Below, piece after piece: positions 9,852-50,340 of a stretch of 64,000 bases of DNA. The position numbers and the translations under genes are program-made. The DNA is from Vulcanimicrobiales bacterium (lineage in GTDB: Bacteria; Vulcanimicrobiota; Vulcanimicrobiia; Vulcanimicrobiales; Vulcanimicrobiaceae). The stretch is from positions 1 through 64,000 of the forward strand of contig JBBQQR010000003.1 in assembly GCA_038215615.1 (NCBI GenBank), in the 5' to 3' direction. The notes beneath the pieces were generated by a model. That model saw nothing but the letters and a program-made list of their open reading frames with translations. It was not told the origin of the DNA and did no database searches. Numbering within the stretch: position 1 is the first letter of the stretch; each line of letters begins with the position of its first letter.

Positions 9852-11060
9852 TCACGAGTTCGCGGGACGCCTCTGCGCGCTCATCGCCCACGCTAAGGCC
9901 ACTAACAAAAAGTTGGCGACGAGCGAACTTCCGCCGTATGAAATGAACGGCAAGGTGATGCCCGTCAGCGGGAAGAGCCCGATAACGCCCCCGACGATGA
10001 TGAAGACTTGGAACGCGACCGTCGCCGATAAGCCGACCGCGAGCAGACCGGCGTACAAGTCCGGCTGCCCCGCTGCGATCGCCAGCATACGGTAGACCAG
10101 CAACAAAAAGAGCCCGAGCACGATGAGCGCACCGATCAAGCCGAACTCTTCGCTGATCGCCGCGTAAACATAGTCGGTCGCTGCCGCCGGAATAAACCCC
10201 GGATGGCCAAGGCGGTAGCCGGTACCCAATAATCCTCCGGCGGCCAGCGAGTAGTAGCCCTGCGAGGCCTGATACCCCGCTCCGAGCGGATCCGCGAACG
10301 GATTGCGCCAGACCGCGATGCGCGTGCCGACGTAGCTGTAATGACGCATCGCCCAGAACGCTACACCGACAAAAAGCGCGCAGCTGCCGACGAGCAAGTC
10401 GATGCGCCGCGTTCCGGCGTAGAGCAACACGGCAAAGGTGGCGAGCAACAGTGCAGCCATGCCGATGTCACGCTGCAAAACCAGGATCGCCATGGACAAG
10501 CCCCAGCCCAAAATCAACGGACCGAGGTATTTGAGGTTGGCCCGAATGGACCAAGGCCTGGCGGCGGCGATAACGTCGGCCGTCTCCGCCAGATATGCGG
10601 CGAGGAAAAACACGATGAACAGCTTGATCAGCTCGACGGGTTCGTATTGAATCGCGCCGATTCGGATCCATAGCCGCGCGCCGTTGACTTCCTGACCGAA
10701 AGCCAAGAGGAGTCCGAAGAGCACCAGTGAGAGCAGCACCCAAAGATATTTGATCGCCGCCAAGCGCCGGAAATTCGTGAAAATGGGCCCGAGGCAGACG
10801 GCCAGCAGCAGCGAGATCAGCAGCCAATATTGCTGGCGGTGCGCCAACTCGGGCGAAATCCGCGCGACCGCAAGCAATCCGATAGTGGCCAGGACGATCG
10901 CAAAGGCCGGCAACGCGTTGTCGCGGGCCGAACCGCGCGGCTGCGCCGCAACCCACCCGATGCACAAAATCGCCAGCACCGCGAGCAGCCACGGCGGACC
11001 GATTGATTTGGGCGGCGCAAACGACAGTGCCAGCGCCGCAAACGCGAGCGCCAGCACCAT
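9852..11060 (-). CDS. FtsW/RodA/SpoVE (SEDS) family protein
   Basis: NGARLWI, QRDIG, GGLLGTG, TDYV, PLTGITLPFISYGGSS; start ATG 11060, GTG 11066 or ATA 11078. Confidence 0.92.
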   Translation of the reverse strand: MVLALAFAALALSFAPPKSIGPPWLLAVLAILCIGWVAAQPRGSARDNALPAFAIVLATIGLLAVARISPELAHRQQYWLLISLLLAVCLGPIFTNFRRLAAIKYLWVLLSLVLFGLLLAFGQEVNGARLWIRIGAIQYEPVELIKLFIVFFLAAYLAETADVIAAARPWSIRANLKYLGPLILGWGLSMAILVLQRDIGMAALLLATFAVLLYAGTRRIDLLVGSCALFVGVAFWAMRHYSYVGTRIAVWRNPFADPLGAGYQASQGYYSLAAGGLLGTGYRLGHPGFIPAAATDYVYAAISEEFGLIGALIVLGLFLLLVYRMLAIAAGQPDLYAGLLAVGLSATVAFQVFIIVGGVIGLFPLTGITLPFISYGGSSLVANFLLVALAWAMSAQRRPANS

Positions 11061-11074
11061 TGGCACGAGGACCT

Positions 11075-11728
11075 TTATCTTATGCTGAGCATCGCGTAGA
11101 AAAGCGCGGTCGCCAGCACTCCGGTAAGTATCGATGGTCCCAAGTGCGCCCCGGTGGGCGCCGGAACCTCCGCTTGCAGGGCCCCGGTAAACGTGATGAC
11201 GAGCCGCTGCGCGCGCGCCGGCAACTCGTGCTCGGCAAGCACCAGCGCATCGCCCGGAGCCAGCGCAAATGCCGTTACGGCCATATCGAGCGTACGCGTC
11301 AGACCCAGCGCGCGAATCAAGACCGGACACCCGAACCCGTCTTCGAATGCATCGTTTTTCGTGAGCGCCACCACCGAACCGCCGCGCGCCAAATAGGCGG
11401 CGGTCGATCCGACGTGCGCCAGATACGCGCGCTCGCGCAGCAGCAGAATCGCAGTCATCGAAGCGCCGGCGGTGACGTAATCTTCGTGCGAAGCGCTGCG
11501 CGCGTGCAGTTCGTCGTTCACGCGCGCGATAACGCTGCCGAGCATGGCCGCGACAGAACGAGGCTTAGGCGCGCGCTGCAGGCGCTGACGCAACTTCGTG
11601 AGCGCAAATGACGCGACCGGCTCGCCGTCAATCCGCCCAAAACCGGTGGCAACCGCGAACAGATAACTTTCGTCCGAGAGCCGCTGCGACAGACAGCATC
11701 CGCGGTCGCCGCTCACCGCGACATTCAC
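11075..11728 (-). CDS. PP2C/PPM-fold protein with degenerate metal-binding motifs
   Basis: FAVATGFG, AHVGSTAAY, LTKND, LIRALG, GDALVL align to the PP2C pattern but the catalytic Asp residues are replaced. Confidence 0.75.
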   Translation of the reverse strand: MNVAVSGDRGCCLSQRLSDESYLFAVATGFGRIDGEPVASFALTKLRQRLQRAPKPRSVAAMLGSVIARVNDELHARSASHEDYVTAGASMTAILLLRERAYLAHVGSTAAYLARGGSVVALTKNDAFEDGFGCPVLIRALGLTRTLDMAVTAFALAPGDALVLAEHELPARAQRLVITFTGALQAEVPAPTGAHLGPSILTGVLATALFYAMLSIR

Positions 11729-12147
11729 GGAAGCGCTCGGATGTCCAAGACTTCGATCCGCGTGTTTCCCACGTCTACATGGTCCCCAATTTTGAGTTCT
11801 ATGCCCTCGTCCGCCAGCCGTTTTCCATTAAGAAACGTGCCGTTGCGGCTGCCAAGGTCGGTTACGTAGAGAGCGCCGGCAGCGGCCTGAAGCGCCGCGT
11901 GCCGCCGGCTCGTCTCAGGATCACCCAGCGGAATGTCGGCGTCGGAAGATCGCCCGATCACGCGCGGAGCGTGGCCTTCCGAAATTTCCAGCTCGAGGGC
12001 GCGGCTATTGACCGTCAGCGCTACGATCATGTTCTCCGGCGCCGCAGGCGCGGCGGCGAAACGATGCCGGCCGACGACGGCACCAAATACCGCGAGCCCC
12101 GCCAAAATCTCGAGCGACCCAATGCGCATCTCCGCTGGAAACGTCAC
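11725..12147 (-). CDS. FHA domain protein with N-terminal membrane anchor (FhaB-like)
   Basis: IGRS, SRRHA, DLGSRNGT.LNG; GTGA overlap with upstream stop. Confidence 0.88.
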   Translation of the reverse strand: MTFPAEMRIGSLEILAGLAVFGAVVGRHRFAAAPAAPENMIVALTVNSRALELEISEGHAPRVIGRSSDADIPLGDPETSRRHAALQAAAGALYVTDLGSRNGTFLNGKRLADEGIELKIGDHVDVGNTRIEVLDIRALP

Positions 12148-12812
12148 GCCTGCTCCACGCGCAGCGCGGCTTTTCCGAACGCTACGACATCGCCCGGTTT
12201 CAATGCGGCTGTATCGACGCGCTCTTCGTTCACGTACGTTCCGTTGGTCGACCCCGCGTCGTGAACGACGAGCGCACCGTCCTGCACGTCGAAGAGCGCG
12301 TGATTGCGCGAGACGCTGGGGTCGGGAAGATGCACGTCGCTTTCGGGACTGCGGCCGACACGCGCCGCGCCGCCGATCCGGTATTGACGTTCCGACGCTA
12401 CGCCGCTCAACACGCGCAGCGTAAAACCACCGTGCGTGCGCGCACTGCGCTCGCCAGCGGTCGCAATATCGACCGCACCTGCCACCATGCCTTCTCCCTC
12501 CAGCAATTCTGTGCGCGGCGGCGTCTGGAAGACGATGCCGACGCGTTCGGCAACGTCGATAAGCAGCGCGCACCATTCCGACTCGAGATACGCGCGATGC
12601 GGCTGAAGACGCCGATAATCATCGGCATGCACGTACACTTCGTAGTGGTCCGGCGCGATGGCGCCCTCCGGCGTCTGTTTCGTGCGAGCCTCCATCGTCG
12701 CAACGAGCTTACGCGCGATCTGCGCCGGCTCGAGGTCGCTCGGAAACATATTGGCGAAAGCGCGCTCAACAAAAGCGGCGCACGCTTCTTCTACGCGCTC
12801 GAAAAAATTCAC
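12144..12812 (-). CDS. fhaA: DUF3662 + FHA domain protein (FhaA-like)
   Basis: P..IARKL...ME, APDHY.V motif; C-terminal FHA GRS, SRNHA, GSTNGT. Confidence 0.88.
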   Translation of the reverse strand: MNFFERVEEACAAFVERAFANMFPSDLEPAQIARKLVATMEARTKQTPEGAIAPDHYEVYVHADDYRRLQPHRAYLESEWCALLIDVAERVGIVFQTPPRTELLEGEGMVAGAVDIATAGERSARTHGGFTLRVLSGVASERQYRIGGAARVGRSPESDVHLPDPSVSRNHALFDVQDGALVVHDAGSTNGTYVNEERVDTAALKPGDVVAFGKAALRVEQA

Positions 12813-14125
12813 CGGCGTTCCAGACGCGCGACGTAAAACCCGTCGCGCCCGTTCAAGCCCGGCGGAACAAGCACGTCGCCGTGCGGGGCCTGTAATTCCG
12901 CCAAATGACTGGGAATCAATCCGCGCTCGACGTTGTGCGCGCTCAGGCACCAGTCGATCACCTCCGTCGTTTCTCGCGGATCAGTCGAACAGACTGCGTA
13001 AACGATCGCGCCCCCATTAAACATTTGCGGCACCAGCGCGTCGAGCAACGCGCGCTGCGTGAGCGCCAACCGTTCGCCGTCGTCGGGATGCTTCCGCCAG
13101 CGCGCTTCGGGATGGCGCCCGAGAACGCCTAAGCCCGAACACGGAGCGTCGATCAGTATCCGATCGACGCGCTGCGGCAGCAACGGTGCGGTCGCATCTC
13201 CCGCGATCGCGGTCACGTTCAGGCCTTCGTTTTTTGCGCGCCGTTCGAGCGTTTCGACCTTGCGCCGCTCGCGATCAATGCACAGAAATGAATTTCCGTC
13301 ATCGAGCCGCGCCGCGATCTGCAGCGCTTTGTTTCCCCGGCCGCTGCACGCGTCGATAACTTTCTCGCCGCTTTGGGGATTCAGAACGTCCACGACCATC
13401 GCCGACGACTCGCTCTGCAGCCACCATCCGGTCTCCTGGGGATCTGCGGCAAGCGCGGCACCGCTTTCGAGCAGCAATGAATCTTCGGAGAGCACCGAAA
13501 GGTGCGTTGTGATTCCACGGCCGGCGAATCGGGTTTGCAGTTCTTCGCGGCTTTGCCGCCTGCGATTGACCGTAAGTGCCGGCTGCGCGGGTTCGTTGCA
13601 CGCTTTGAGCAGTTCTTCGAGCTGCACGCCGAAGACGCCGCGCCACTGACGCACGATCCACGTCGGATAAGAATAGAGCGTCCCGAGATACTCGTCTTCG
13701 TTTTCAAAGTCTGACGGTTGCGGCGGCGCGGGACGGTCGCGCAGACAGCCGCGAAACACGGCGTTCACCAAGCCCGCGGTGCCGCGATGCCCGTGCCGCT
13801 TGGCTGCGTTCACCCATTGACTGACGACCGCGTGGTCCGCTGCCGCGCTAAACAACAGTTCGTAAAAACCAAGCCGCAGGATCTCGGCAATTGCCGGGGG
13901 CAGTGCTTTTCCGCGCTGTCCGATATACGGTGTTAAATACCAGTCCAGCGTGCGGCGCATTTTGATCGTCCCGAAAACCAGATGCGTGCAGAACGCGCGA
14001 TCGCGTACGTCGAGTTTTTCTTTGCCTGCGCGGTACTCGAGCGCTTCCTGCGCTCCGCGTCCGGGCGATCCGTCGAATGGAAAGACGTCGCGTATCACAA
14101 GGAATGCAACTTCGCGAGCCGTCAT
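12809..14125 (-). CDS. rsmB: 16S rRNA m5C967 methyltransferase RsmB
   Basis: NusB-like N-terminus, DACSGRGNK, DAPCSGLG, VYAVCS, DGFY; follows fmt. Confidence 0.93.
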   Translation of the reverse strand: MTAREVAFLVIRDVFPFDGSPGRGAQEALEYRAGKEKLDVRDRAFCTHLVFGTIKMRRTLDWYLTPYIGQRGKALPPAIAEILRLGFYELLFSAAADHAVVSQWVNAAKRHGHRGTAGLVNAVFRGCLRDRPAPPQPSDFENEDEYLGTLYSYPTWIVRQWRGVFGVQLEELLKACNEPAQPALTVNRRRQSREELQTRFAGRGITTHLSVLSEDSLLLESGAALAADPQETGWWLQSESSAMVVDVLNPQSGEKVIDACSGRGNKALQIAARLDDGNSFLCIDRERRKVETLERRAKNEGLNVTAIAGDATAPLLPQRVDRILIDAPCSGLGVLGRHPEARWRKHPDDGERLALTQRALLDALVPQMFNGGAIVYAVCSTDPRETTEVIDWCLSAHNVERGLIPSHLAELQAPHGDVLVPPGLNGRDGFYVARLERR

Positions 14126-42593: not shown

Positions 42594-43139
42594 GTGAGCA
42601 AACGCCTGCCGCTCTGGCTCGCCGCAGTCGTCCCATCGATGGCGGCCGGCCACGTCGCGGGCTACGCGCTATCGGGACTAAGCTCGGCCGACGGCCGGCA
42701 TGGCTGGCTCTCGCCCGCCCTTGAAGTCTGCGGAGCCGCGCTGATCGGCTTGGGCGCGCTCATCATCGCGAGCACCTTGCTGCGCGCCGGCGTCTTCCGT
42801 CGATCGCAGATCGAAAGCTCGGTGTTGGCGCTGGCGCCGCGGTTGGCGGCATCGCAGCTCGTGCTCTTCGTTGCGGCAGAGACATTCGAAGGGCGCAGCA
42901 TCACGCCGGCCGGCATCGCCACGCAGATCGTATCGGCGCTGCTCGCCGCGTATATGCTTTCGCTATTCAGCAGAATCATCGAACGCTGTATCGCCGGTGC
43001 CGCCGAAGCCGGCAGCTATCTCGACCGTCTTGCCGCGGTCACCGCGGCCTTCTCGCTCATCGAATCCGCGCCGCGATCCCTTGCGCTTTTCGCAAGTGCA
43101 GGCAACAGCCGTTTTCAGCGACCTCCTCCGTTCGCGTAG
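42594..43139 (+). CDS. Membrane leader protein with C-terminal RFQRPPP arrest-like motif
   Basis: About 4 hydrophobic segments, GH..GY and HGW motifs, ends QRPPPFA* 39 nt before the next gene. Confidence 0.8.
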   Translation: MSKRLPLWLAAVVPSMAAGHVAGYALSGLSSADGRHGWLSPALEVCGAALIGLGALIIASTLLRAGVFRRSQIESSVLALAPRLAASQLVLFVAAETFEGRSITPAGIATQIVSALLAAYMLSLFSRIIERCIAGAAEAGSYLDRLAAVTAAFSLIESAPRSLALFASAGNSRFQRPPPFA

Positions 43140-43171
43140 TCATTACGCTCTTGACTACACTCAAACGGAGG
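43125..43171 (+). promoter_or_regulatory. Shine-Dalgarno-sequestering hairpin
   Basis: CCTCCGTT (43125-32) pairs with AACGGAGG (43164-71); GTAGTCA (43136-42) pairs with TGACTAC (43152-58). Confidence 0.8.
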
Positions 43172-43178
43172 TATTCGC

Positions 43179-44948
43179 GTGTTGCAACGCATTTTTGCAG
43201 CCGCAGTTCGCGCGACGTGCGCGACTGTGGCGATCACGGCAGCCCTCGCCGGCCGGGCTGAAGCCGTTCCCGTCTTTGCCAATGGGCAAGGCGTCTCGTG
43301 TCAAACCTGTCACACCACGTTCCCGGGCATGACGCGCTACGGCATGATGGTGATGATGACGAATTTTCAAATTCTCGACCGTCACTCTCAAGACCAAGCG
43401 CTGCCAATCGCAGTGCGTATGTACGTGGATTCGGTGCTCGGCACGGGAGATCAAAAGGGATACACGCAGCTCGGCGATCTCTCGCTGCTGGGCGGCGGTT
43501 TTCTCGGAAGAAACTTCACGTGGTACGGCGAGCAGCACATCGTCGATTCCGGCGTTATCGGCCAAACCGAACAGGTGTGGCTTTCCTGGAACGGCTTGTT
43601 CGGCGGCACCAACTCGCTGCAGGTCGGAAAATTCCACACGCCGTTCCCGTTCATGCCGGCGCACGCGTGGACGCCTTCAGGCTACCTCCTAGCATTACAA
43701 ACCACAGGGCAGAACGATTTCAATGCCGCTGAAGCGCGCTGGGGCGTTGCCTTTTCCGGCATGAGTAACGAATTCATGTACAACGCTTCGTACCTCACCG
43801 GAAGCGGTCCGACGGGCGAAGCGCTCAACTTCAACAAGAACTCGCATCCCCGCGCATACGACTTCAACGTCTCGTATGGCGGTATGCAGATTCCGTGGGA
43901 GCTGGGATTGGTGGCGATGCGCGGCGACGCGCCGGTGGTCGATCCGGACTCCGGCGATTTTCTCTTTAGCGATCAGTGGACGCGCCAGGGAGCCTATCTC
44001 TCGTATCAAGACAGCAAGTGGCACTTTCAAACGATGTACTATCGCGGAAACGACACACAGCCGGACGTCGATACCCTGAACACCACATCGAACGGCTTCT
44101 TCTTCGAAGCGGCCCGCGATTTCGCCAAAGACCACGTGCTGGTGCGGTACGACGTCGCCTCGAGCGATTCGCTCGACCGGCAATACCTGGTGGACGTTTC
44201 ACACAACTTCCAGCCGAATCTCGCGCTGATCGGTGAAGTCCGGATGGTGCCGGCGCAAAAACCGCAGATCATGTTTAGGCTTGCGTATGCCGGACCGTGG
44301 GAAAACGGACGGCGAATTCTTTCCAACGGACACGACGTCTCCACAAACTTCACAGCGCAGCCGCAGTTGCATCCTGCGCAAACGCTCCCGGGTGCCGTGG
44401 CTTCGCCCCTTCCCGCAACGCCGGCCGGCGGCGACGCAAACAATGGGGCGCAACTCGTGCAATCCAACGGCTGCGCGGGCTGTCACGGTGCGGGCCTGAA
44501 GGGCGGGCGAATCGGACCCGTGCTGTTCGGCATCGAACACCACATGTCGAACGATCAGATCGCGGACTTTATCATACATCCGCGCGCGCCGATGCCGAAC
44601 TTCGGTTTCAACACCGCGCAAGTCTCGGACATCGTAGCGTATCTCACGTCACTCGACGGCGGCATCAACAATACTGCGCCTGTCGTCACGTTCTCGCCGG
44701 CGGCGCCGACCGATTTCGCAACGATTAGCGTGACGTTCCCGGGAACTCCGCCGGAAAGCGTCCGGGTTCTTCCGGTCATGCGCATGGGAACCAGCACGCA
44801 CCACACGGCGATGGTCGAATTGCAACCGCTGCCGTCGGATCCGCACACGTTCACCGGCCGCGTCGCATTTTCGATGGGCGGCCCCTGGATCGTACACATC
44901 CAATACGGCCGGCAGGAGTTGGACGTCCCGCTCAACATCGGGACGTAA
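43179..44948 (+). CDS. Cyc2-like cytochrome-porin fused to a second cytochrome c and a YtkA/FixH-like domain
   Basis: Signal peptide, AVPVFA.....CQTCHTTFP.MT.YG, amphipathic beta-strands, Pro/Ala linker, GCAGCH...PMP, then MRMG..HH...FSMGGPW. Confidence 0.82.
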   Translation: MLQRIFAAAVRATCATVAITAALAGRAEAVPVFANGQGVSCQTCHTTFPGMTRYGMMVMMTNFQILDRHSQDQALPIAVRMYVDSVLGTGDQKGYTQLGDLSLLGGGFLGRNFTWYGEQHIVDSGVIGQTEQVWLSWNGLFGGTNSLQVGKFHTPFPFMPAHAWTPSGYLLALQTTGQNDFNAAEARWGVAFSGMSNEFMYNASYLTGSGPTGEALNFNKNSHPRAYDFNVSYGGMQIPWELGLVAMRGDAPVVDPDSGDFLFSDQWTRQGAYLSYQDSKWHFQTMYYRGNDTQPDVDTLNTTSNGFFFEAARDFAKDHVLVRYDVASSDSLDRQYLVDVSHNFQPNLALIGEVRMVPAQKPQIMFRLAYAGPWENGRRILSNGHDVSTNFTAQPQLHPAQTLPGAVASPLPATPAGGDANNGAQLVQSNGCAGCHGAGLKGGRIGPVLFGIEHHMSNDQIADFIIHPRAPMPNFGFNTAQVSDIVAYLTSLDGGINNTAPVVTFSPAAPTDFATISVTFPGTPPESVRVLPVMRMGTSTHHTAMVELQPLPSDPHTFTGRVAFSMGGPWIVHIQYGRQELDVPLNIGT

Positions 44949-46363
44949 TGCGGCGGTCGTCCTTCCTGATGGCGAGCGGCGGCGCGATGATCGTCGCCGC
45001 CTTGCCGCCGCTTTCCGAACGCGGGCGTGCGAGCGAGTTGGTGCAGTACACGCTCACTGCCGGCCCCGTTCGTTTCTCGCCGGTTCCCGGCCTCAATTTT
45101 GCCGGTCTCGGCTATAACGGCACTATTCCCGGTCCGCTTTTGCGCGTGGTTCACGGGCAGAAGCTGCGCGCGAGGTTCATCAACCAAACCGGACAAGGCT
45201 CGACCATTCACTGGCACGGCATGATCTTGCCGAACAAAATGGATGGATCGGAAGGGGTGACGCAGCCCGCCGTTCCGCCGGGCGGATCGTTTCTCTACGA
45301 GTTTTCACCCGAACCGCCCGGCACGCGCTGGTATCACGATCACGTCAGCGATGGTTTGCTGCGCGGACTCTTCGGCATGATTATCGTTGAGGATCCGCGC
45401 GACCAGCGCCCCGATGCGGAATTTGTGCTCGTTTTCCACGACGTTCCGAAAATGGCCACGGTTCAACCAGCGATGATGGGAGTGGGCAACGGCCCGATGA
45501 CCGATCCAACCGGTTCGCCCGAGCTCATGCAAATGTCCGACGACAAGATGGGCGACGAGGTCGCGTTCAGCGCGCATTGCATCAACGGCGCTTCATATCC
45601 GGATACCAAACGGCTGGCCGTAAAAGTCGGCCAGCACGTGCGTCTGCGCATACTCAACGCCAACCCGACGCAAACGCGCTACGTCCGGCTTGCCGGACAC
45701 CGCCTGATCGTCACGCATAGCGACGGCAATCCGCTTCCGCGGCCCGTGGAAGTCGACGCGCTTCGCGTGGGAGTCGCAGAACGGTACGACGCATGGTTCG
45801 AAGTCAGTGAGCCCGGCGCATGGCTGCTGCAAGGCCTTTCGAGCGACCCGCTCGCGTTCGAGCAGGCCGCCGTGATGCATACTCCGGGAATGGAAAACGC
45901 TCCGCCGCTCAGCAGCCCGCAATCGCTCGAAGGCGTGGACTATTTCACGTACGTGAAAGCCGGGGGAGCGGGAACCGCGACGCCGGCGCAGCGCGGGAAA
46001 CAGTACGATTTTATTTTGGACGACGGAAAATACGGCAGTTCGCGCTGGACGATCAACGGAAAGACCTATCCGAATACGCCAAGGATCGACGTGCACCGCA
46101 ACGATCTCGTCACCGTCCGTTTCACCAATAAGACCGATATGGACCATCCGATGCACCTGCACGGCCACGTTTTCGAAGTGACCGAAGTTGACGGGATCCC
46201 GCTCGCGCGGCCCCTGCCGAAAGACACCTCGCTGGTGCGTGGGAACGGAGGGACGCTGAGCTGGCGTTTTCGTGCGGACTCTCCCCCCGGCCGCTGGCTG
46301 CTGCACTGCCACAACGCGATCCACATGATGGACGGCATGATGACGCTGGTGCAGTACGGATGA
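44948..46363 (+). CDS. Tat-exported multicopper oxidase
   Basis: MRRSSFL Tat motif; HWHG, WYHDH, HPMHLHGH, HCHNAIH....M. Confidence 0.95.
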   Translation: MRRSSFLMASGGAMIVAALPPLSERGRASELVQYTLTAGPVRFSPVPGLNFAGLGYNGTIPGPLLRVVHGQKLRARFINQTGQGSTIHWHGMILPNKMDGSEGVTQPAVPPGGSFLYEFSPEPPGTRWYHDHVSDGLLRGLFGMIIVEDPRDQRPDAEFVLVFHDVPKMATVQPAMMGVGNGPMTDPTGSPELMQMSDDKMGDEVAFSAHCINGASYPDTKRLAVKVGQHVRLRILNANPTQTRYVRLAGHRLIVTHSDGNPLPRPVEVDALRVGVAERYDAWFEVSEPGAWLLQGLSSDPLAFEQAAVMHTPGMENAPPLSSPQSLEGVDYFTYVKAGGAGTATPAQRGKQYDFILDDGKYGSSRWTINGKTYPNTPRIDVHRNDLVTVRFTNKTDMDHPMHLHGHVFEVTEVDGIPLARPLPKDTSLVRGNGGTLSWRFRADSPPGRWLLHCHNAIHMMDGMMTLVQYG

Positions 46364-47469
46364 TGATTCTTCAGGCGCTGGAGCTGGCTGCGGGCATGTT
46401 TTGGCAAGTCGCCTGGAGTCTGGTGCTCGGTTTCTTTCTTTCGGCCGCGATTCAAACGCTGGTCTCGAAAGAGCGCATGACCGCGCAGCTCGGCCGCAAC
46501 GGCGTGCGCGAAATCGCGCTCGCAACCGTTTACGGTGCGGCGAGCTCTTCCTGTTCGTACGCCGCCGCGGCGATGAGCAAGTCACTCTTCAAAAAGGGCG
46601 CCGGATTTATTCCCTCGCTCGCGTTTCTCTTCGCATCGACCAATCTCGTCGTCGAGCTCGGCATCATTTTGTACCTGCTGATGGGATGGCAGTTCACTGC
46701 AGCGGAGTGGATCGGGGGCGTTCTGCTGATCGCGATCATGGCGCTGATCGTCAAAGCGACGTATCCCGCGGCGTTGATCGCGGAAGCTCGCCGTCATCTA
46801 GACGAGGCCACCGGCGAGGACGAAACCGTCGCCGGTGAAACATTTTGGGACAAACTGCGTAATCCGCAGACCCCGGTCACGATTGCGCAGACATTCGTGA
46901 TGGACGTTTCCATGCTGTGGAAAGATTTGGCAGCCGGGTTCTTGATCGCCGGCGCACTTGGCATTTTCGTGCCCGCCGGCGTGTGGGGCACATTCTTTCT
47001 GCATGGCGCGCCCGCGGGAGTTCAAATCGTCGCCAACGCGATCGCCGGACCGCTGGTGGCGATCGTTTCGTTCGTCTGCTCGATCGGCAACGTTCCGATG
47101 GCGGCGATCCTATGGGGGAGCGGGATCAGTTTCGGCGGCGTCTTGAGTTTCTTGTTCGCCGATCTGATCGTGTTGCCGCTGCTCGACGTCTACCGGCGCT
47201 ATTATGGCTTGAAGATGGCCGCCTACATCGGCGCCGTCTTTTTCGTGACGATGGTCGCGGCTGGGATCATCATGCAGTACGTCTTCGCAGCGTTCGGGGC
47301 GGTCCCGCATCCCAATCCGCATATCCGCACCGAACTCTCGCTCTTTGCGATCAACTACACGTTTTGGCTGAACCTCGCACTTGGCGCCCTGGCGATCGCG
47401 CTGTGGTACGTGAACGTCAAACATCCGATGTCGCACAGCTGCCCCGCTCACGAGGGCCACGCCCACTAA
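46360..47469 (+). CDS. DUF318/ArsP-type permease with His-rich tail
   Basis: SSSCSYAA, ASTNL, FVCSIGNVP, C-terminal HPMSHSCPAHEGHAH. Confidence 0.88.
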   Translation: MMILQALELAAGMFWQVAWSLVLGFFLSAAIQTLVSKERMTAQLGRNGVREIALATVYGAASSSCSYAAAAMSKSLFKKGAGFIPSLAFLFASTNLVVELGIILYLLMGWQFTAAEWIGGVLLIAIMALIVKATYPAALIAEARRHLDEATGEDETVAGETFWDKLRNPQTPVTIAQTFVMDVSMLWKDLAAGFLIAGALGIFVPAGVWGTFFLHGAPAGVQIVANAIAGPLVAIVSFVCSIGNVPMAAILWGSGISFGGVLSFLFADLIVLPLLDVYRRYYGLKMAAYIGAVFFVTMVAAGIIMQYVFAAFGAVPHPNPHIRTELSLFAINYTFWLNLALGALAIALWYVNVKHPMSHSCPAHEGHAH

Positions 47470-47486: not shown

Positions 47487-48515
47487 ATGCACTTTCTCGG
47501 ACGCGGACGCGTCGTGGTAACTGGCGGAGCCGGATTTATCGGCAGCGCACTGGTCTGGGCGCTCAATCTGCGCGGTGTCGACGACATCCTTATCGTCGAC
47601 AGACTCGACCAATCCGAAAAGTGGAAAAATCTCGTCCCGCTGCGCTACCGGGACTACATGGACGCAAGCGATTTCGAATCCGCGCTCCTTACGCGGCCTG
47701 GCGATTTTCGGGAAGTAAGTACGCTGCTGCATTTAGGCGCTTGCTCGTCGACCACCGAAACGGACACGGCGTTTTTGATGCGCAACAACTACGAGTACAC
47801 CAAGCACCTGGCACAGTGGGCGATCGAACACGACGTCCGTTTCGTGTACGCTTCTTCCGCAGCAACCTACGGCGGACTCGAACGCAACCTGCGCGACGAC
47901 TCCGAACTCGACGCGTTGCGGCCGCTGAACATGTACGCGTATTCGAAGCATCGCTTCGATCTATTCGCACGCGACAACGGCTGGCTCGACAAAATCACGG
48001 GCCTGAAATACTTCAACGTCTTCGGACCGAACGAGCAGCACAAAGGCGAGATGCGCAGCTTGGTCGACAAGGCTTTTCACCAAATCCAAGAGACGGGCAC
48101 CATACGTCTATTCAAAAGTTACCGCAGCGAGTACCGCGACGGCGAACAGCGGCGAGACTTTCTTTACGTCAAGGACGCGGCGGAGATGACCCTGCACGTG
48201 GCCGACCGCGAAGCTTTCGGACTGTTTAACCTCGGTTCGGGGCAAGCGCACACGTGGCTCGATCTGGTGCGCCCGATTTTCCGTTCACTTCGCGTGCCCG
48301 AGCGCATCGAGTTCGTCGACATGCCGGCCCAGCTGCGCGACAAGTACCAATACTGCACGTGCGCCACGATCGACCGGCTGCGTGCCGCCGGCTACGAGGG
48401 GCCCGTGACGGAACTCGATTGCGCCGTTGACGACTACGTTTCCAATTACTTGCTGCCCGGCCGCGGCCTCGACCCGCAGGCCGAATCGTCCGCCGCACTT
48501 AATCGCAGCGCATGA
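47487..48515 (+). CDS. hldD: ADP-L-glycero-D-manno-heptose 6-epimerase
   Basis: TGGAGFIGS, HLGACSSTTE, ASSAATYG, PLNMYAYSK, YFNVFGPNE.HKG.M.S. Confidence 0.95.
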   Translation: MHFLGRGRVVVTGGAGFIGSALVWALNLRGVDDILIVDRLDQSEKWKNLVPLRYRDYMDASDFESALLTRPGDFREVSTLLHLGACSSTTETDTAFLMRNNYEYTKHLAQWAIEHDVRFVYASSAATYGGLERNLRDDSELDALRPLNMYAYSKHRFDLFARDNGWLDKITGLKYFNVFGPNEQHKGEMRSLVDKAFHQIQETGTIRLFKSYRSEYRDGEQRRDFLYVKDAAEMTLHVADREAFGLFNLGSGQAHTWLDLVRPIFRSLRVPERIEFVDMPAQLRDKYQYCTCATIDRLRAAGYEGPVTELDCAVDDYVSNYLLPGRGLDPQAESSAALNRSA

Positions 48516-49270
48516 GTTCTCGCGCAGATCGCCGCCGTCACCAGCGTGGCGGCTCGGGGCCGCCGGCGCGCCGCGATCCCATGGTCCCGGTGTACATTGG
48601 CCTCGCCGTCTTCATCGTTCTGGTATTCGTGGGCTTCGGCATCATGTCGGCCTTGCAAAATTCAAAGCGCAACGCCCAGCAAAGTTTCGTGACAGCAACT
48701 CCGACGCCGGGACCCAACGCAAGTTCCAAGCCGATCAAGCTCAAAGATGGCGGAGCCGTCGGCGCGCGAGTCTTTCCCACGCCCGACCCCGCGCATGGGT
48801 TCATCGGCGACACCATCGTGGGCGGCCGTAGCCTGCCCGTCGACAACATTCCATGCCAAAGTTCAGAGGCAGCCGTCCTGCACGTGCACACGCACCTCGC
48901 TGTCTTCAATCACGGCGTTCAAGTGCAAGTGGCCCCGTATCTGGGCATGGCGTCGCTCTCGCCAACGCAGGGCTGTCTGTATTGGATCCACACGCACGAT
49001 CCGAGCGGCATCATTCACATCGAAGCGGGCAGCATCGTTTCGCCCAACGGCGGAAACTACACGCTCGGAAACTTCTTCGACATCTGGGGCCAGCCGCTGA
49101 GCCGCACACAACTCGGCCCGTTCAAAGGCCCGGTCACGGCTTTCGTCAACGGATCGCAGTACAACGGCGACCTCGCATCGATTCCGCTCCGCGCCCACCA
49201 ACAGATCGTTTTAGAGGCCGGATCGCCGATCGTGCCTCCGCCGAATTACACGTTCCCCTTCGGGGACTAA
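48512..49270 (+). CDS. Membrane-anchored hypothetical protein with clustered His motifs
   Basis: N-terminal TM; HVHTHL, CLYWIHTHD.SG.IHIE, TLG.FFDIWG. Confidence 0.85.
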   Translation: MSSRADRRRHQRGGSGPPARRDPMVPVYIGLAVFIVLVFVGFGIMSALQNSKRNAQQSFVTATPTPGPNASSKPIKLKDGGAVGARVFPTPDPAHGFIGDTIVGGRSLPVDNIPCQSSEAAVLHVHTHLAVFNHGVQVQVAPYLGMASLSPTQGCLYWIHTHDPSGIIHIEAGSIVSPNGGNYTLGNFFDIWGQPLSRTQLGPFKGPVTAFVNGSQYNGDLASIPLRAHQQIVLEAGSPIVPPPNYTFPFGD

Positions 49271-49392: not shown

Positions 49393-50340
49393 GTGAACGT
49401 TTTTGTGGGAATGGTGGTTGGCGCACTCTTAACCATCATTCCGGTGCACGGTACCGTCCTTACGGTTACTTCGACGAACACCGCGATTGTAAGGACCGAA
49501 GCCGTGACCGGGATGCTGCCGTCGACGACACGTGCGTACCGGATCGAACCGCAGCTCGTTCTGAGCGCCGGCGCCGGCATCGACGGGTTCGTCGATAATC
49601 GGCCGCGCCCGTGGCGCCTGTACGATGCCGCATTGGCCGGCCCGTTTGTCGCCGGCCTCCCGCAGACCGGAAAAGTTATCGCATTCGATATCGGCTCGAA
49701 GCTGCCGCACACGCAGCTGGTCGATCAGCGCGGTAAGTTGGTTGACCTGGCGGCGTTCCACGGCGTATCGCTGACCAGTTTTATTTTCACGCGCTGCCGA
49801 GACGAGTGCCCACTCGTCGCGGCAAAATTTGTGGAGATGCAGAAGCAGCTCGATACGAGCCGGTTCCATCTCTTCTTGATCACCATAGATCCCATGTACG
49901 ATTCGCCGTTGGTGCTTGCGCGCTATGCGCGCCAATTCCGCATGAACCCGGCTTCGATCTCCGTGCTGACCGGGCAGCCGCACGATATCGCGACCTTACT
50001 CGACCAATTCGGCATCACGTCGCTCCAAAATGGCGATGCCACCTTCATTCATAGCGACAAAGTGTACTTGGCGTCACCGGACGGACGCGTCGCGCAGATC
50101 TTACAGACGACCGGTTTCACGCCGGGTTCGCTCGCGGCTGCGGCCCGGCATCTGGCAGGCATGGCGAGCAGCCCGTTCGGACGCTTTCAATTGTGGCTGG
50201 TCGCCGGGGTCACTGCTCTCTGCGGCGGAAACCAGTTTGCCGGAATCGTCGCGCTCGAGACCGTCTTGTTTTTGATTATCGCCGGAATCTCGTTCGTGAC
50301 GCTTGGGTGGGTGGTCCGAAGGATATGGGGGAGTACGTAA
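49393..50340 (+). CDS. SCO1/SenC family copper chaperone with extra N-terminal beta domain and C-terminal TM
   Basis: FIFTRCRDECP (CxxxCP), ITIDP.YD, FIHS; GGAGGT SD. Confidence 0.9.
   Translation: MNVFVGMVVGALLTIIPVHGTVLTVTSTNTAIVRTEAVTGMLPSTTRAYRIEPQLVLSAGAGIDGFVDNRPRPWRLYDAALAGPFVAGLPQTGKVIAFDIGSKLPHTQLVDQRGKLVDLAAFHGVSLTSFIFTRCRDECPLVAAKFVEMQKQLDTSRFHLFLITIDPMYDSPLVLARYARQFRMNPASISVLTGQPHDIATLLDQFGITSLQNGDATFIHSDKVYLASPDGRVAQILQTTGFTPGSLAAAARHLAGMASSPFGRFQLWLVAGVTALCGGNQFAGIVALETVLFLIIAGISFVTLGWVVRRIWGST

Follow-up and report, generated by a model that had tools for sequence, protein, structure and literature searches.

In the first 64,000 nucleotides (nt) of contig JBBQQR010000003.1 (GenBank assembly GCA_038215615.1, Vulcanimicrobiales bacterium; positions 1 to 64,000 of the forward strand, hereafter the window), we found a gene for a haem-porin that is composed of four parts: a Cyc2-type haem motif, a 16-strand OprP-like barrel, a class I cytochrome c and a YtkA/CrdA-like domain. 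This four-part architecture is conserved in more than 100 homologues, and those that are named come from Eremiobacterota (Vulcanimicrobiota). Judged from sequence, the operon probably serves the handling of copper in one direction or the other, and we tentatively propose, at somewhat less than even confidence, that it is a cell-envelope module for redox-assisted copper uptake and delivery. The reading shifts from an iron-oxidase conduit to copper handling because of an upstream leader that ends in an RxPP motif and is followed by a messenger RNA (mRNA) hairpin, a multicopper oxidase encoded downstream, and the mutual exclusion with CopC/CopD (CopCD). The features that carry this reading are the following, with residues given in amino acids (aa) and the confidence of predicted structures as predicted local distance difference test (pLDDT) scores:

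42594–43139, plus strand: leader open reading frame (ORF), 181 aa from GTG, a hydrophobic membrane protein ending in RFQRPPPFA, 39 nt before the haem-porin start
43118–43178, plus strand: mRNA hairpin, in which Pro-Pro-Phe codons (43125–43132) pair with the Shine-Dalgarno (SD) region of the haem-porin gene (43164–43171)
43179–43265, plus strand: signal peptide (aa 1–29) with a cleavage-like end (AEA|V), judged by eye from sequence; A27 and A29 are at least 90% conserved
43266–43406, plus strand: Cyc2-type haem segment (aa 30–76) with PVFA-x6-CQTCH, PGM and a Met-rich helix (M51, M56, M57, M59, M60)
43407–44297, plus strand: 16-stranded outer-membrane beta-barrel (aa 77–373) in the AlphaFold2 model, matching OprP
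43635–43733, plus strand: long loop after strand 5 (the porin L3 position) with invariant H153, M159 and H162
44298–44432, plus strand: Pro/Ala-rich flexible linker (aa 374–418), pLDDT mostly below 50
44433–44654, plus strand: class I cytochrome c (aa 419–492) with C432, C435, H436 and M472 as the probable distal ligand
44676–44948, plus strand: YtkA/CrdA-like beta-sandwich (aa 500–589) with invariant M534, M536 and M566
44948–46363, plus strand: three-domain multicopper oxidase, whose start overlaps the haem-porin stop; PF07732, PF00394 and PF07731 are above cut-off

The haem-porin ORF (43179–44948, plus strand) starts with GTG and encodes 589 aa with no internal stop. Its translation contains PVFA-x6-CQTCH, TTFPGMTRYG, MMVMM (56–60) and CAGCH (432–436), followed towards the C-terminus by PMP (471–473), MRM-x4-HH (534–542) and FSMGGPW (564–570); an earlier sequence-only reading of this stretch had the N-terminal motif right and its spacing one residue short (x5). 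A search of 5.8 billion proteins at E ≤ 0.001 returned 210 homologues, the best 120 of which were 53–89% identical, nearly all across most of the length; the named ones among these 120 were Rubrimentiphilum, Baltobacteraceae and Vulcanimicrobiaceae, the rest being unclassified bacteria. Scanning species genomes brought up 69 loci, whose titles read Vulcanimicrobiota/Eremiobacterota or unclassified, with one titled Dormiibacterota. An independently assembled contig of run X1 spans 43350–45044 with zero differences from the window, which speaks against misassembly only, as X1 may be the source sample. The intact ORF, the homologues and the X1 contig together rule out an artefact of frameshift or misassembly, and no stop or frameshift of the kind considered by the sequence-only reading splits the domains. 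Both a cytochrome c assembly protein and an Omp85 protein are encoded in the genome, which makes it plausible that haem is attached and the barrel inserted.

The AlphaFold2 model, built with 101 sequences, placed 16 strands over aa 77–373, a helical cytochrome c at 420–491 and a beta-sandwich at 502–587, with a mean pLDDT of 76 that fell below 50 in the N-terminal haem segment and the linker. Short turns lie on one side of the barrel and long loops on the opposite one. The best structural match of the barrel among 48,161 chains was OprP (2o4v; Z 24.3, root-mean-square deviation (rmsd) 2.8 over 282 residues), a template that has also been reported for Cyc2, and the top Foldseek matches were general porins. 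The barrel seen by the sequence-only reading is thus present, at about 300 rather than the claimed ~320 aa. The number of strands is even, and therefore both termini would be periplasmic. Across the 101 sequences, C41, C44, H45, M51, M56, M59 and M60 are invariant, as are the ligands of the cytochrome c, including M472. The linker (aa 374–418) varies in length and sequence and is Met-rich in some relatives. The second, class I cytochrome c that had been recognized by eye scored above the Pfam cut-offs (PF13442, E 3e-11, 43.9 vs. 27 bits; PF00034, E 4.5e-8, 34.7 vs. 21.3 bits), and when it was folded alone with the tail, the pLDDT was 83 and the predicted template modelling score (pTM) 0.77. 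A sequence search of solved structures with the haem-porin yielded weak cytochrome matches only (best E 0.03).

The C-terminal tail is YtkA-like but not a formal member of the family. The isolated domain scored 19.1 bits against Pfam YtkA (PF13115), below the gathering score of 25.9; among six homologue tails scanned, five scored 12.6–21 bits and the sixth had no match. The Atlas feature search led to YtkA clusters (0.92, 0.89 and 0.88), and the fold comparison ranked Helicobacter pylori CrdA (9ll2) first (Z 10.3, rmsd 2.5 over 91 residues), with unrelated immunoglobulin (Ig) folds at Z 8.2–9.8; Foldseek on the cytochrome c-YtkA model gave generic Ig folds only. The Atlas clusters thus point to YtkA, as the sequence-only reading had it, and the Pfam score falls short. 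Like CrdA and Bacillus CtaK/YtkA, the tail is predicted to be a beta-sandwich with a surface Met cluster, and unlike them it is fused to a cytochrome c and a porin, shares 14% identity with CrdA and falls below the Pfam YtkA cut-off. The candidate ligands that are invariant in the 101 sequences are M534, M536 and M566. Position 541 is Met in 79 and His in 20 of the sequences (Met or His in 99), and position 542 is His in only 19. The Met residues of the MRM..HH motif emphasized in the sequence-only reading are thus invariant, and its HH pair, which is not conserved, was ruled out as a metal site. CrdA, which binds copper via a Met cluster, does so at about 10 µM for Cu(II), and a tighter binding of Cu(I) has been proposed (PMC9182242); YtkA domains serve copper delivery in Bacillus (PMC13344008). 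The tail of the haem-porin is probably a copper-binding domain.

The N-terminal part of the protein resembles Cyc2. In common with Acidithiobacillus ferrooxidans Cyc2, Mariprofundus Cyc2PV-1, Leptospirillum Cyt572 and Ghiorsea Cyc2TAG1_1, it has a signal peptide, an N-terminal CxxCH that AxPxFA precedes by six residues, and a 16-strand barrel for which OprP/OprO is the best template (10.1101/228056; PMC13741234). The published Cyc2 consensus consists of AxPxFAR[Q/K][T/Y] upstream of CxxCH and PxL downstream (10.1101/228056). In the haem-porin, AVPVFA stands at the canonical spacing, but R[Q/K][T/Y] is absent and an invariant NGQ follows instead, and PxL is replaced by PGM, the Met being found in 54 of 57 subfamily rows (see below). 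Leu occupies the PxL position in all 53 rows of two paralogue groups. While Cyc2 binds a single haem and ends with its barrel, the haem-porin adds a second CxxCH and ~215 further residues, so that it has two haems (three in 3 of 59 relatives) and a C-terminal YtkA-like domain; it also differs from Cyc2 in its Met/His-rich plug and loop and in being tied to a multicopper oxidase and an RxPP leader rather than to a rus-type respiratory operon. Sequence searches with the haem-barrel part recovered distant homologues with the full Cyc2 consensus, and in a quick tree, 20 PxFAR[K/Q]-type homologues grouped apart from the Eremiobacterota proteins. By these motifs, the haem-porin is a Cyc2 homologue that falls outside the strict Cyc2 definition.

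Cyc2 homology, in both haem motif spacing and barrel fold, suggests a different function, in which the protein would be a Cyc2-like Fe(II)/Mn(II) oxidase or electron-uptake conduit that passes electrons from the N-terminal haem (haem 1) through the cytochrome c and the multicopper oxidase to O2, with the YtkA domain and the leader merely securing copper for the oxidase. All three biochemically tested Cyc2 types oxidize Fe(II) (PMC13741234; PMC13692758), Cyc2 pathways use periplasmic cytochromes and copper proteins (PMC13741234), iron oxidation has already been predicted in Eremiobacterota (from a Cyc2 homologue in PMC8357290, and also in PMC13594681), and a copper-responsive switch would suit any operon that needs a four-copper enzyme. 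The replaced R[Q/K][T/Y] and PxL motifs argue against this function, and the function of divergent Cyc2 homologues is itself stated to be uncertain (10.1101/228056). The source genome showed no RuBisCO. Electron transfer to a soluble oxidase conserves no energy, which also counts against it. Taken with the Met sites, the paralogues and the CopCD distribution described below, we consider an iron- or manganese-oxidizing role unlikely.

What sets the haem-porin apart from its paralogues is methionine. Haem-barrel homologues were found in 212 of 301 sampled genomes of the phylum (five genomes in these counts and among the 232 considered below are marked unpublished, none of these in the subfamily or CopD sets). 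Loci were fetched for the best matches and 40 weaker ones; five matches without an N-terminal haem motif were dropped, and 119 loci were left after removal of duplicates. They were divided solely by the count of methionines in the 18 residues after CxxCH into 59 Met-rich and 60 other loci, and only rows of at least 320 aa entered the tree and the column counts. In the haem-barrel region of the 54 Met-rich rows, nine Met columns are conserved at ≥90%, compared with one in a paralogue group of 27 rows that is just as divergent (identity 0.63 vs. 0.65) and one in a 26-row group. The conserved Met/His sites are predicted to lie in the haem plug (M51, M56, M59, M60), in the loop that makes up the constriction of porins (H153, M159, H162) and near the periplasmic rim (M195, M200, M236, M286). 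H153, M159, H162, M195 and M200 are found in 57 of 57 subfamily rows, whereas the paralogue groups have other residues there, and L, R and L/Q at positions 51, 56 and 59. The loop, together with M195, M200, M236 and M286, forms a candidate Met/His path for metal, whose inward placement follows from strand alternation and porin topology rather than from coordinates. One plug methionine could be a haem ligand, which would leave the other conserved methionines unexplained. H342 was dropped as a ligand in the lumen because it aligns with aromatic girdle positions in the paralogues. Fe(II) oxidation needs no enrichment of Met/His in pore and plug, and an iron-oxidizing conduit leaves the Met path unexplained.

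The domains behind the barrel are distributed differently. The YtkA-like tail is fused in 46 of the 59 Met-rich rows and in none of the 60 others, while a second cytochrome c stands behind the barrel in 27 of those 60, so a second-haem fusion is common in the phylum; the cytochrome was accordingly ruled out as a unique feature of the haem-porin and is not as special as the sequence-only reading had made it. In four of the 59 loci, the barrel and the cytochrome c-YtkA unit are adjacent separate genes, and the three of these inspected have their own signal-like N-terminus. The single-chain architecture described at the outset is thus real, being one intact ORF, without being obligatory. The remaining Met-rich loci comprise three apparently frameshifted ones (L043, L163 and L165, scored as not fused), three cut by contig ends, and three with three haems and no tail. 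The three-haem proteins (L053:6521-8434, L054:6124-8058 and L055:6179-8140) have two Met-rich linkers, lack the YtkA-like tail and still have the oxidase downstream.

Two further paralogues are encoded in the source genome. The first (536 aa; haem, barrel and cytochrome c; L001:8696-10306 (-), 10893-13548 (+); G000 contig C22) lies in divergent orientation to genes for a COX2-like cupredoxin, an unusual haem-copper oxidase subunit I that scores below all NCBIfam cut-offs, and a cytochrome c, and it is a better candidate for a respiratory role. The second (376 aa, haem and barrel only; L002:5350-7458 (-); G000 contig C5) has PLFAQRY, nearer to the Cyc2 consensus, with a cupredoxin and an SCO-like gene upstream and a two-component system downstream. 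These two, beside cupredoxin, SCO or oxidase genes, fit respiration better than the haem-porin does. Elsewhere, P0141 (513 aa) is a Cyc2-like haem-porin with a cupredoxin-like Cys/His/Met motif at its end, P0134 (581 aa) has three haem motifs, and a paralogue (L071:7487-9259) contains a long Met-Gly-Ser repeat within its C-terminal cytochrome domain. By their predicted domains, the haem-porins of this group seem to pick up periplasmic redox domains repeatedly.

The gene that directly follows the haem-porin encodes a multicopper oxidase with an HCH-x3-H-x4-M type-1 region and a Met/Asp-rich insert; the insert and ligands recur in 42 homologues, and a twin-arginine translocation (Tat)-like signal is present, its RR pattern being found in 37 of 47 homologues. 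The protein scored below the NCBIfam cut-offs for CopA (181.7 of 478.95 bits) and CueO (123.3 of 525 bits), and it resembles cuprous oxidases of the CueO/CopA type in its three cupredoxin domains, type-1 ligands, Tat-like signal and Met-rich insert. An oxidase lies directly downstream in 50 of the 52 Met-rich loci with enough sequence and in none of the 57 others.

Directly upstream, the leader ORF is a candidate metal-sensing ribosome-arrest leader. An RxPP-ending ORF precedes the haem-porin in 40 of 58 Met-rich loci and in 1 of 55 paralogue loci, and a match to the leader family is adjacent in 41 of 59 Met-rich loci and in none of the non-Met loci. In an alignment of 39 leaders (numbered from 42597), E95, E98, R175, P177 and P178 are invariant and H19, H35, Q87 and P176 are conserved at ≥90%; the invariance of R, P and P is not an independent count, since the leaders were picked by the RxPP motif. 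The Pfam scan of the leader found no family above cut-off and no DUF2946 match at E ≤ 1, and the aligned leaders have no invariant Cys and no conserved CxxC/CxxxC motif, having His/Glu instead. The Atlas matches were unnamed clusters (0.94–0.96). Among the look-alike clusters are some with Actinomycetota as the commonest phylum (0.95 and 0.94), and the leader family may extend beyond the phylum.

The hairpin between leader and haem-porin has a folding energy of -36.2 kcal/mol (z -4.8), and none of 200 shuffled sequences was as stable. It was scored by folding each locus, the DNA alignment (43% identity) being too ragged for a covariation count. The SD was paired with codons of the RxPP region at P ≥ 0.5 in 35 of 39 loci, with z ≤ -2 in 29 of 39; these 39 exclude two of the 41 leader loci that have no detectable SD. 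CCT, a rare codon that creates the anti-SD, accounts for 41 of 116 leader Pro codons, compared with 8.4% in the source genome. The leader-porin spacer is mostly 33–61 nt. In a C-terminal RxPP-type motif upstream of the target and a stem-loop that hides the downstream SD, this arrangement is like that of CutF of Rhodobacter capsulatus. Unlike the DUF2946 leaders of CutF-CutO-CutG and of CruR (Bordetella pertussis), the leader is a 181-aa His/Glu membrane protein and not a short secreted CxxC protein, and unlike in both systems its first target is a haem-porin. The published leader survey would have excluded this family, as it kept only proteins of <150 aa with a signal peptide. At one locus (L038, upstream of 6539), the stop codon of the leader is gone and its frame continues into the haem-porin, while RPP and the downstream SD are kept. 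The members of one genus (L050, L144, L151 and L156) have no leader; their proteins have Met-rich linkers and the loci a conserved upstream stretch with a G run, and this genus perhaps uses a different regulator.

The same gene logic of CutF, hairpin, CutO and chaperone, with the spacer mostly of 33–61 nt, is what a copper-induced detoxification operon like cutFOG or copLAB would show. In such an operon, the Met/His sites and the YtkA domain would catch excess Cu(I), which would be oxidized to Cu(II) as electrons flow from haem 1 through the cytochrome c to the multicopper oxidase or a terminal oxidase, and the pore would let copper out. The Met/Asp-rich insert and Tat-like signal of the oxidase are consistent with it, and CrdA, which ranks first among the fold matches of the tail, is a determinant of copper resistance. 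In the source genome, rated 100% complete, neither a CopA-type P1B ATPase nor CsoR was matched by its model, and the cell may therefore need some other defence. The lack of a CopA ATPase was dropped as evidence of uptake, because 22 of 42 subfamily genomes have one above cut-off. The distribution of the leader and of CopCD, to which we now turn, speaks against detoxification, which we regard as somewhat unlikely.

The leader family was found in 92 of 201 genomes of the phylum. Among 20 further leader loci, which were chosen from the match list and not at random, 12 head TonB-dependent receptors, six head copC/copD operons, one heads LytR and one had no match; outside the haem-porin loci, the family thus stands ahead of import machinery 18 times out of 20, at odds with a role in detoxification. 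In five of the six copC/copD operons, the leader is followed by an unannotated exported protein, after which come copC and a copD-cytochrome c fusion (Pfam confirmed CopC in four of the five), and the sixth also contains YcnI and Nramp. In this sixth operon, a 673-aa ORF with CopC, CopD and signal peptidase S26 domains stands behind the leader, followed by YcnI and Nramp (L224:1308-3326). The four best-scoring leaders outside the haem-porin loci all head copD operons, and a leader lies 1–2 kb upstream of copD in 18 of the 27 CopD genomes covered by both searches. The exported protein between leader and copC (~300 aa; L212:7249-8220, L214:1898-2803, L215 and L226) has a His right after its signal peptide and no Pfam family, and it is possibly the outer-membrane channel of the copCD operon.

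Haem-porin and CopD appear to exclude each other. In three families with haem-barrel homologues (232 genomes), the Met-rich protein occurs in 42 genomes and CopD above cut-off in 45, with an overlap of 0 compared with 8.1 expected for these 232 genomes, which include kin that are not independent and incomplete metagenome-assembled genomes. CopD is thus found in 0 of 42 subfamily genomes and in 45 of 190 others, and the split is also seen within five genera (g5, g24, g34, g62 and g64). Strong CopC matches were found in 0 of 42 subfamily genomes and in 7 of 7 control genomes. The CopA-type ATPase shows no such exclusion. This non-overlap with CopCD but not with CopA argues against detoxification, and it is also left unexplained by an iron-oxidizing conduit. 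CopCD-type systems import copper (PMC13344008). The haem-porin operon is like CopC/CopD import operons in having the same leader family upstream and a YtkA-like copper-delivery domain: B. subtilis YcnJ, of the CopC/CopD type, carries a C-terminal YtkA domain, E. coli AZY is another system of that type, and in this phylum CopD itself is frequently joined to a cytochrome c, as the haem-porin is. The haem-porin operon differs from them in that it contains no CopC or CopD and that transport would fall to a haem-porin of the outer membrane; a conserved importer of the inner membrane was not found.

The same leader data bear on the possibility that the operon serves a different metal, sensed by the leader (Ni, Co, Zn or Ag, or iron in an oxidase-coupled uptake as by Fet3/Ftr1). 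The leader ligands His, His, Glu and Glu, with no invariant Cys, are consistent with it, as is the Nramp in one leader operon; for the TonB receptors that the leader heads, no NCBIfam model that would name a substrate passed its cut-off. CopC, CopD, YcnI, SCO, YtkA and the Met-rich sites, on the other hand, all point to copper, and no FTR1-type permease was recognized among the selected neighbours that were annotated. We regard another metal as very improbable.

For copper uptake, the components could work as follows. The leader would bind metal via His/His/Glu/Glu during its membrane insertion and thereby set ribosome stalling at RxPP, and the stalling would open the hairpin and turn on the haem-porin and the coupled oxidase. 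Haem 1 would plug the barrel from the inside, with the cytochrome c-YtkA unit hanging in the periplasm. Cu(II) at the His-Met-His loop would be reduced to Cu(I) by haem 1, which would be re-reduced from the respiratory chain via the tethered cytochrome c, and the Cu(I) would travel along the methionines to the YtkA domain and then to periplasmic cuproproteins. The Met-rich oxidase may be loaded by this route, re-oxidize surplus Cu(I), or both. OprC is likewise an outer-membrane barrel with a methionine track, along which it is proposed to import Cu(I) (PMC8610252); OprC is TonB-energized and has a CxxxM-HxM site and no haem, whereas the haem-porin has a 16-strand porin fold and two haems. The simplest account is that the haem-porin operon would serve its hosts as copCD operons serve their relatives. 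Both the electron relay and the copper binding are inferred from sequence. The link to copper drawn in the sequence-only reading is nevertheless backed by the Met signature, the oxidase, the leader and the CopCD non-overlap. Rather less likely than not is the fullest form of the proposal, that a Cyc2-type haem-porin was repurposed as a haem-gated reductive copper import channel with a tethered donor and chaperone, replacing CopC/CopD in part of a major soil phylum, under an undescribed family of membrane-embedded His/Glu ribosome-arrest sensors that also control copCD and TonB-receptor operons.

Several observations weigh against uptake. The direction of control is not readable from sequence: stalling is brought on by copper in CutF, whereas in CruR, where it likewise switches on the next gene, copper lifts it (PMC9426467), and the short hairpin-type spacer resembles the copper-induced detoxification case of CutF-CutO. 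The His/Glu ligands of the leader are not copper-specific, since CutF-like proteins with His only precede Ni/Co genes, and 14 of the 59 Met-rich loci have no separate upstream match to the leader family, one of them being the read-through fusion. Oxidases that are Met-rich and carry a Tat signal normally detoxify Cu(I). The model of the haem segment is poor, and the placement of the Met/His residues in the lumen is deduced. Because a porin is passive and supplies no driving force, uptake would hinge on copper being trapped in the periplasm. For the CopD exclusion, the Fisher p of 6e-5 overstates the significance, relatives being non-independent, and weak CopC-like matches (E 4e-8 to 8e-4) are found in 15 of the 42 subfamily genomes. 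Finally, the Met-rich subfamily consists of two well-supported clades whose joint support is just 48, so that its correlations, including the link to the oxidase, reflect one or two origins.

Further downstream in the window lie three genes of the neighbourhood:

46360–47469, plus strand: ArsP/DUF318 permease, PF03773 at E 4e-61; the SO_0444 Cu/Zn efflux model is far below cut-off
48512–49270, plus strand: His-rich protein, 252 aa, membrane-anchored, no Pfam family
49393–50340, plus strand: SCO1/SenC protein, PF02630 at E 2e-21

The weak match of the permease to a Cu/Zn efflux family would suit detoxification, but the permease is confined to close relatives: it was found near the gene in 9 of 59 loci (blast), all close relatives of the window, and was ruled out as a core part. 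The His-rich and SCO1/SenC proteins recur near the operon in a subset of loci and belong to the neighbourhood, not to the core. The His-rich family is also found near leader-TonB receptor loci, and a second copy lies directly upstream of the haem-porin in several relatives. A TonB receptor occurs within 5.2 kb in 21 of the 59 Met-rich loci. The source genome encodes three haem-copper oxidases and four multicopper-oxidase loci, and its copper demand is thus high.

A search of the open literature, with subscription papers and supplements outside it, found no description of the haem-porin architecture or of the leader, and the available portions of PMC10654088 and PMC12914433 contain no mention of such a system. 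Eremiobacterota Cyc2-like proteins have been reported with no architecture given in the portion available (PMC8357290), and members could sit uncommented in the Cyc2 tree files of 10.1101/228056, File S2 of PMC8357290 and File S1 of PMC9973294.

Cyc2-like genes serve to call iron oxidizers in metagenomes, and 212 of the 301 genomes of this phylum carry a homologue. Given that the operon of this soil bacterium looks, from its gene content and conserved residues, to be built for handling copper rather than iron, Cyc2-like genes may not always mark iron oxidizers. If this holds true, a Cyc2 relative devoted to copper would give the fold a first function other than with iron and would counsel care in such calls. 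Few systems are known for the passage of ionic copper through the outer membrane of Gram-negative bacteria (PMC8610252), and a haem-coupled pore would add a novel one. As the leader is shared by haem-porin, copCD and TonB operons, the metal it senses and its direction of control would apply to all three.

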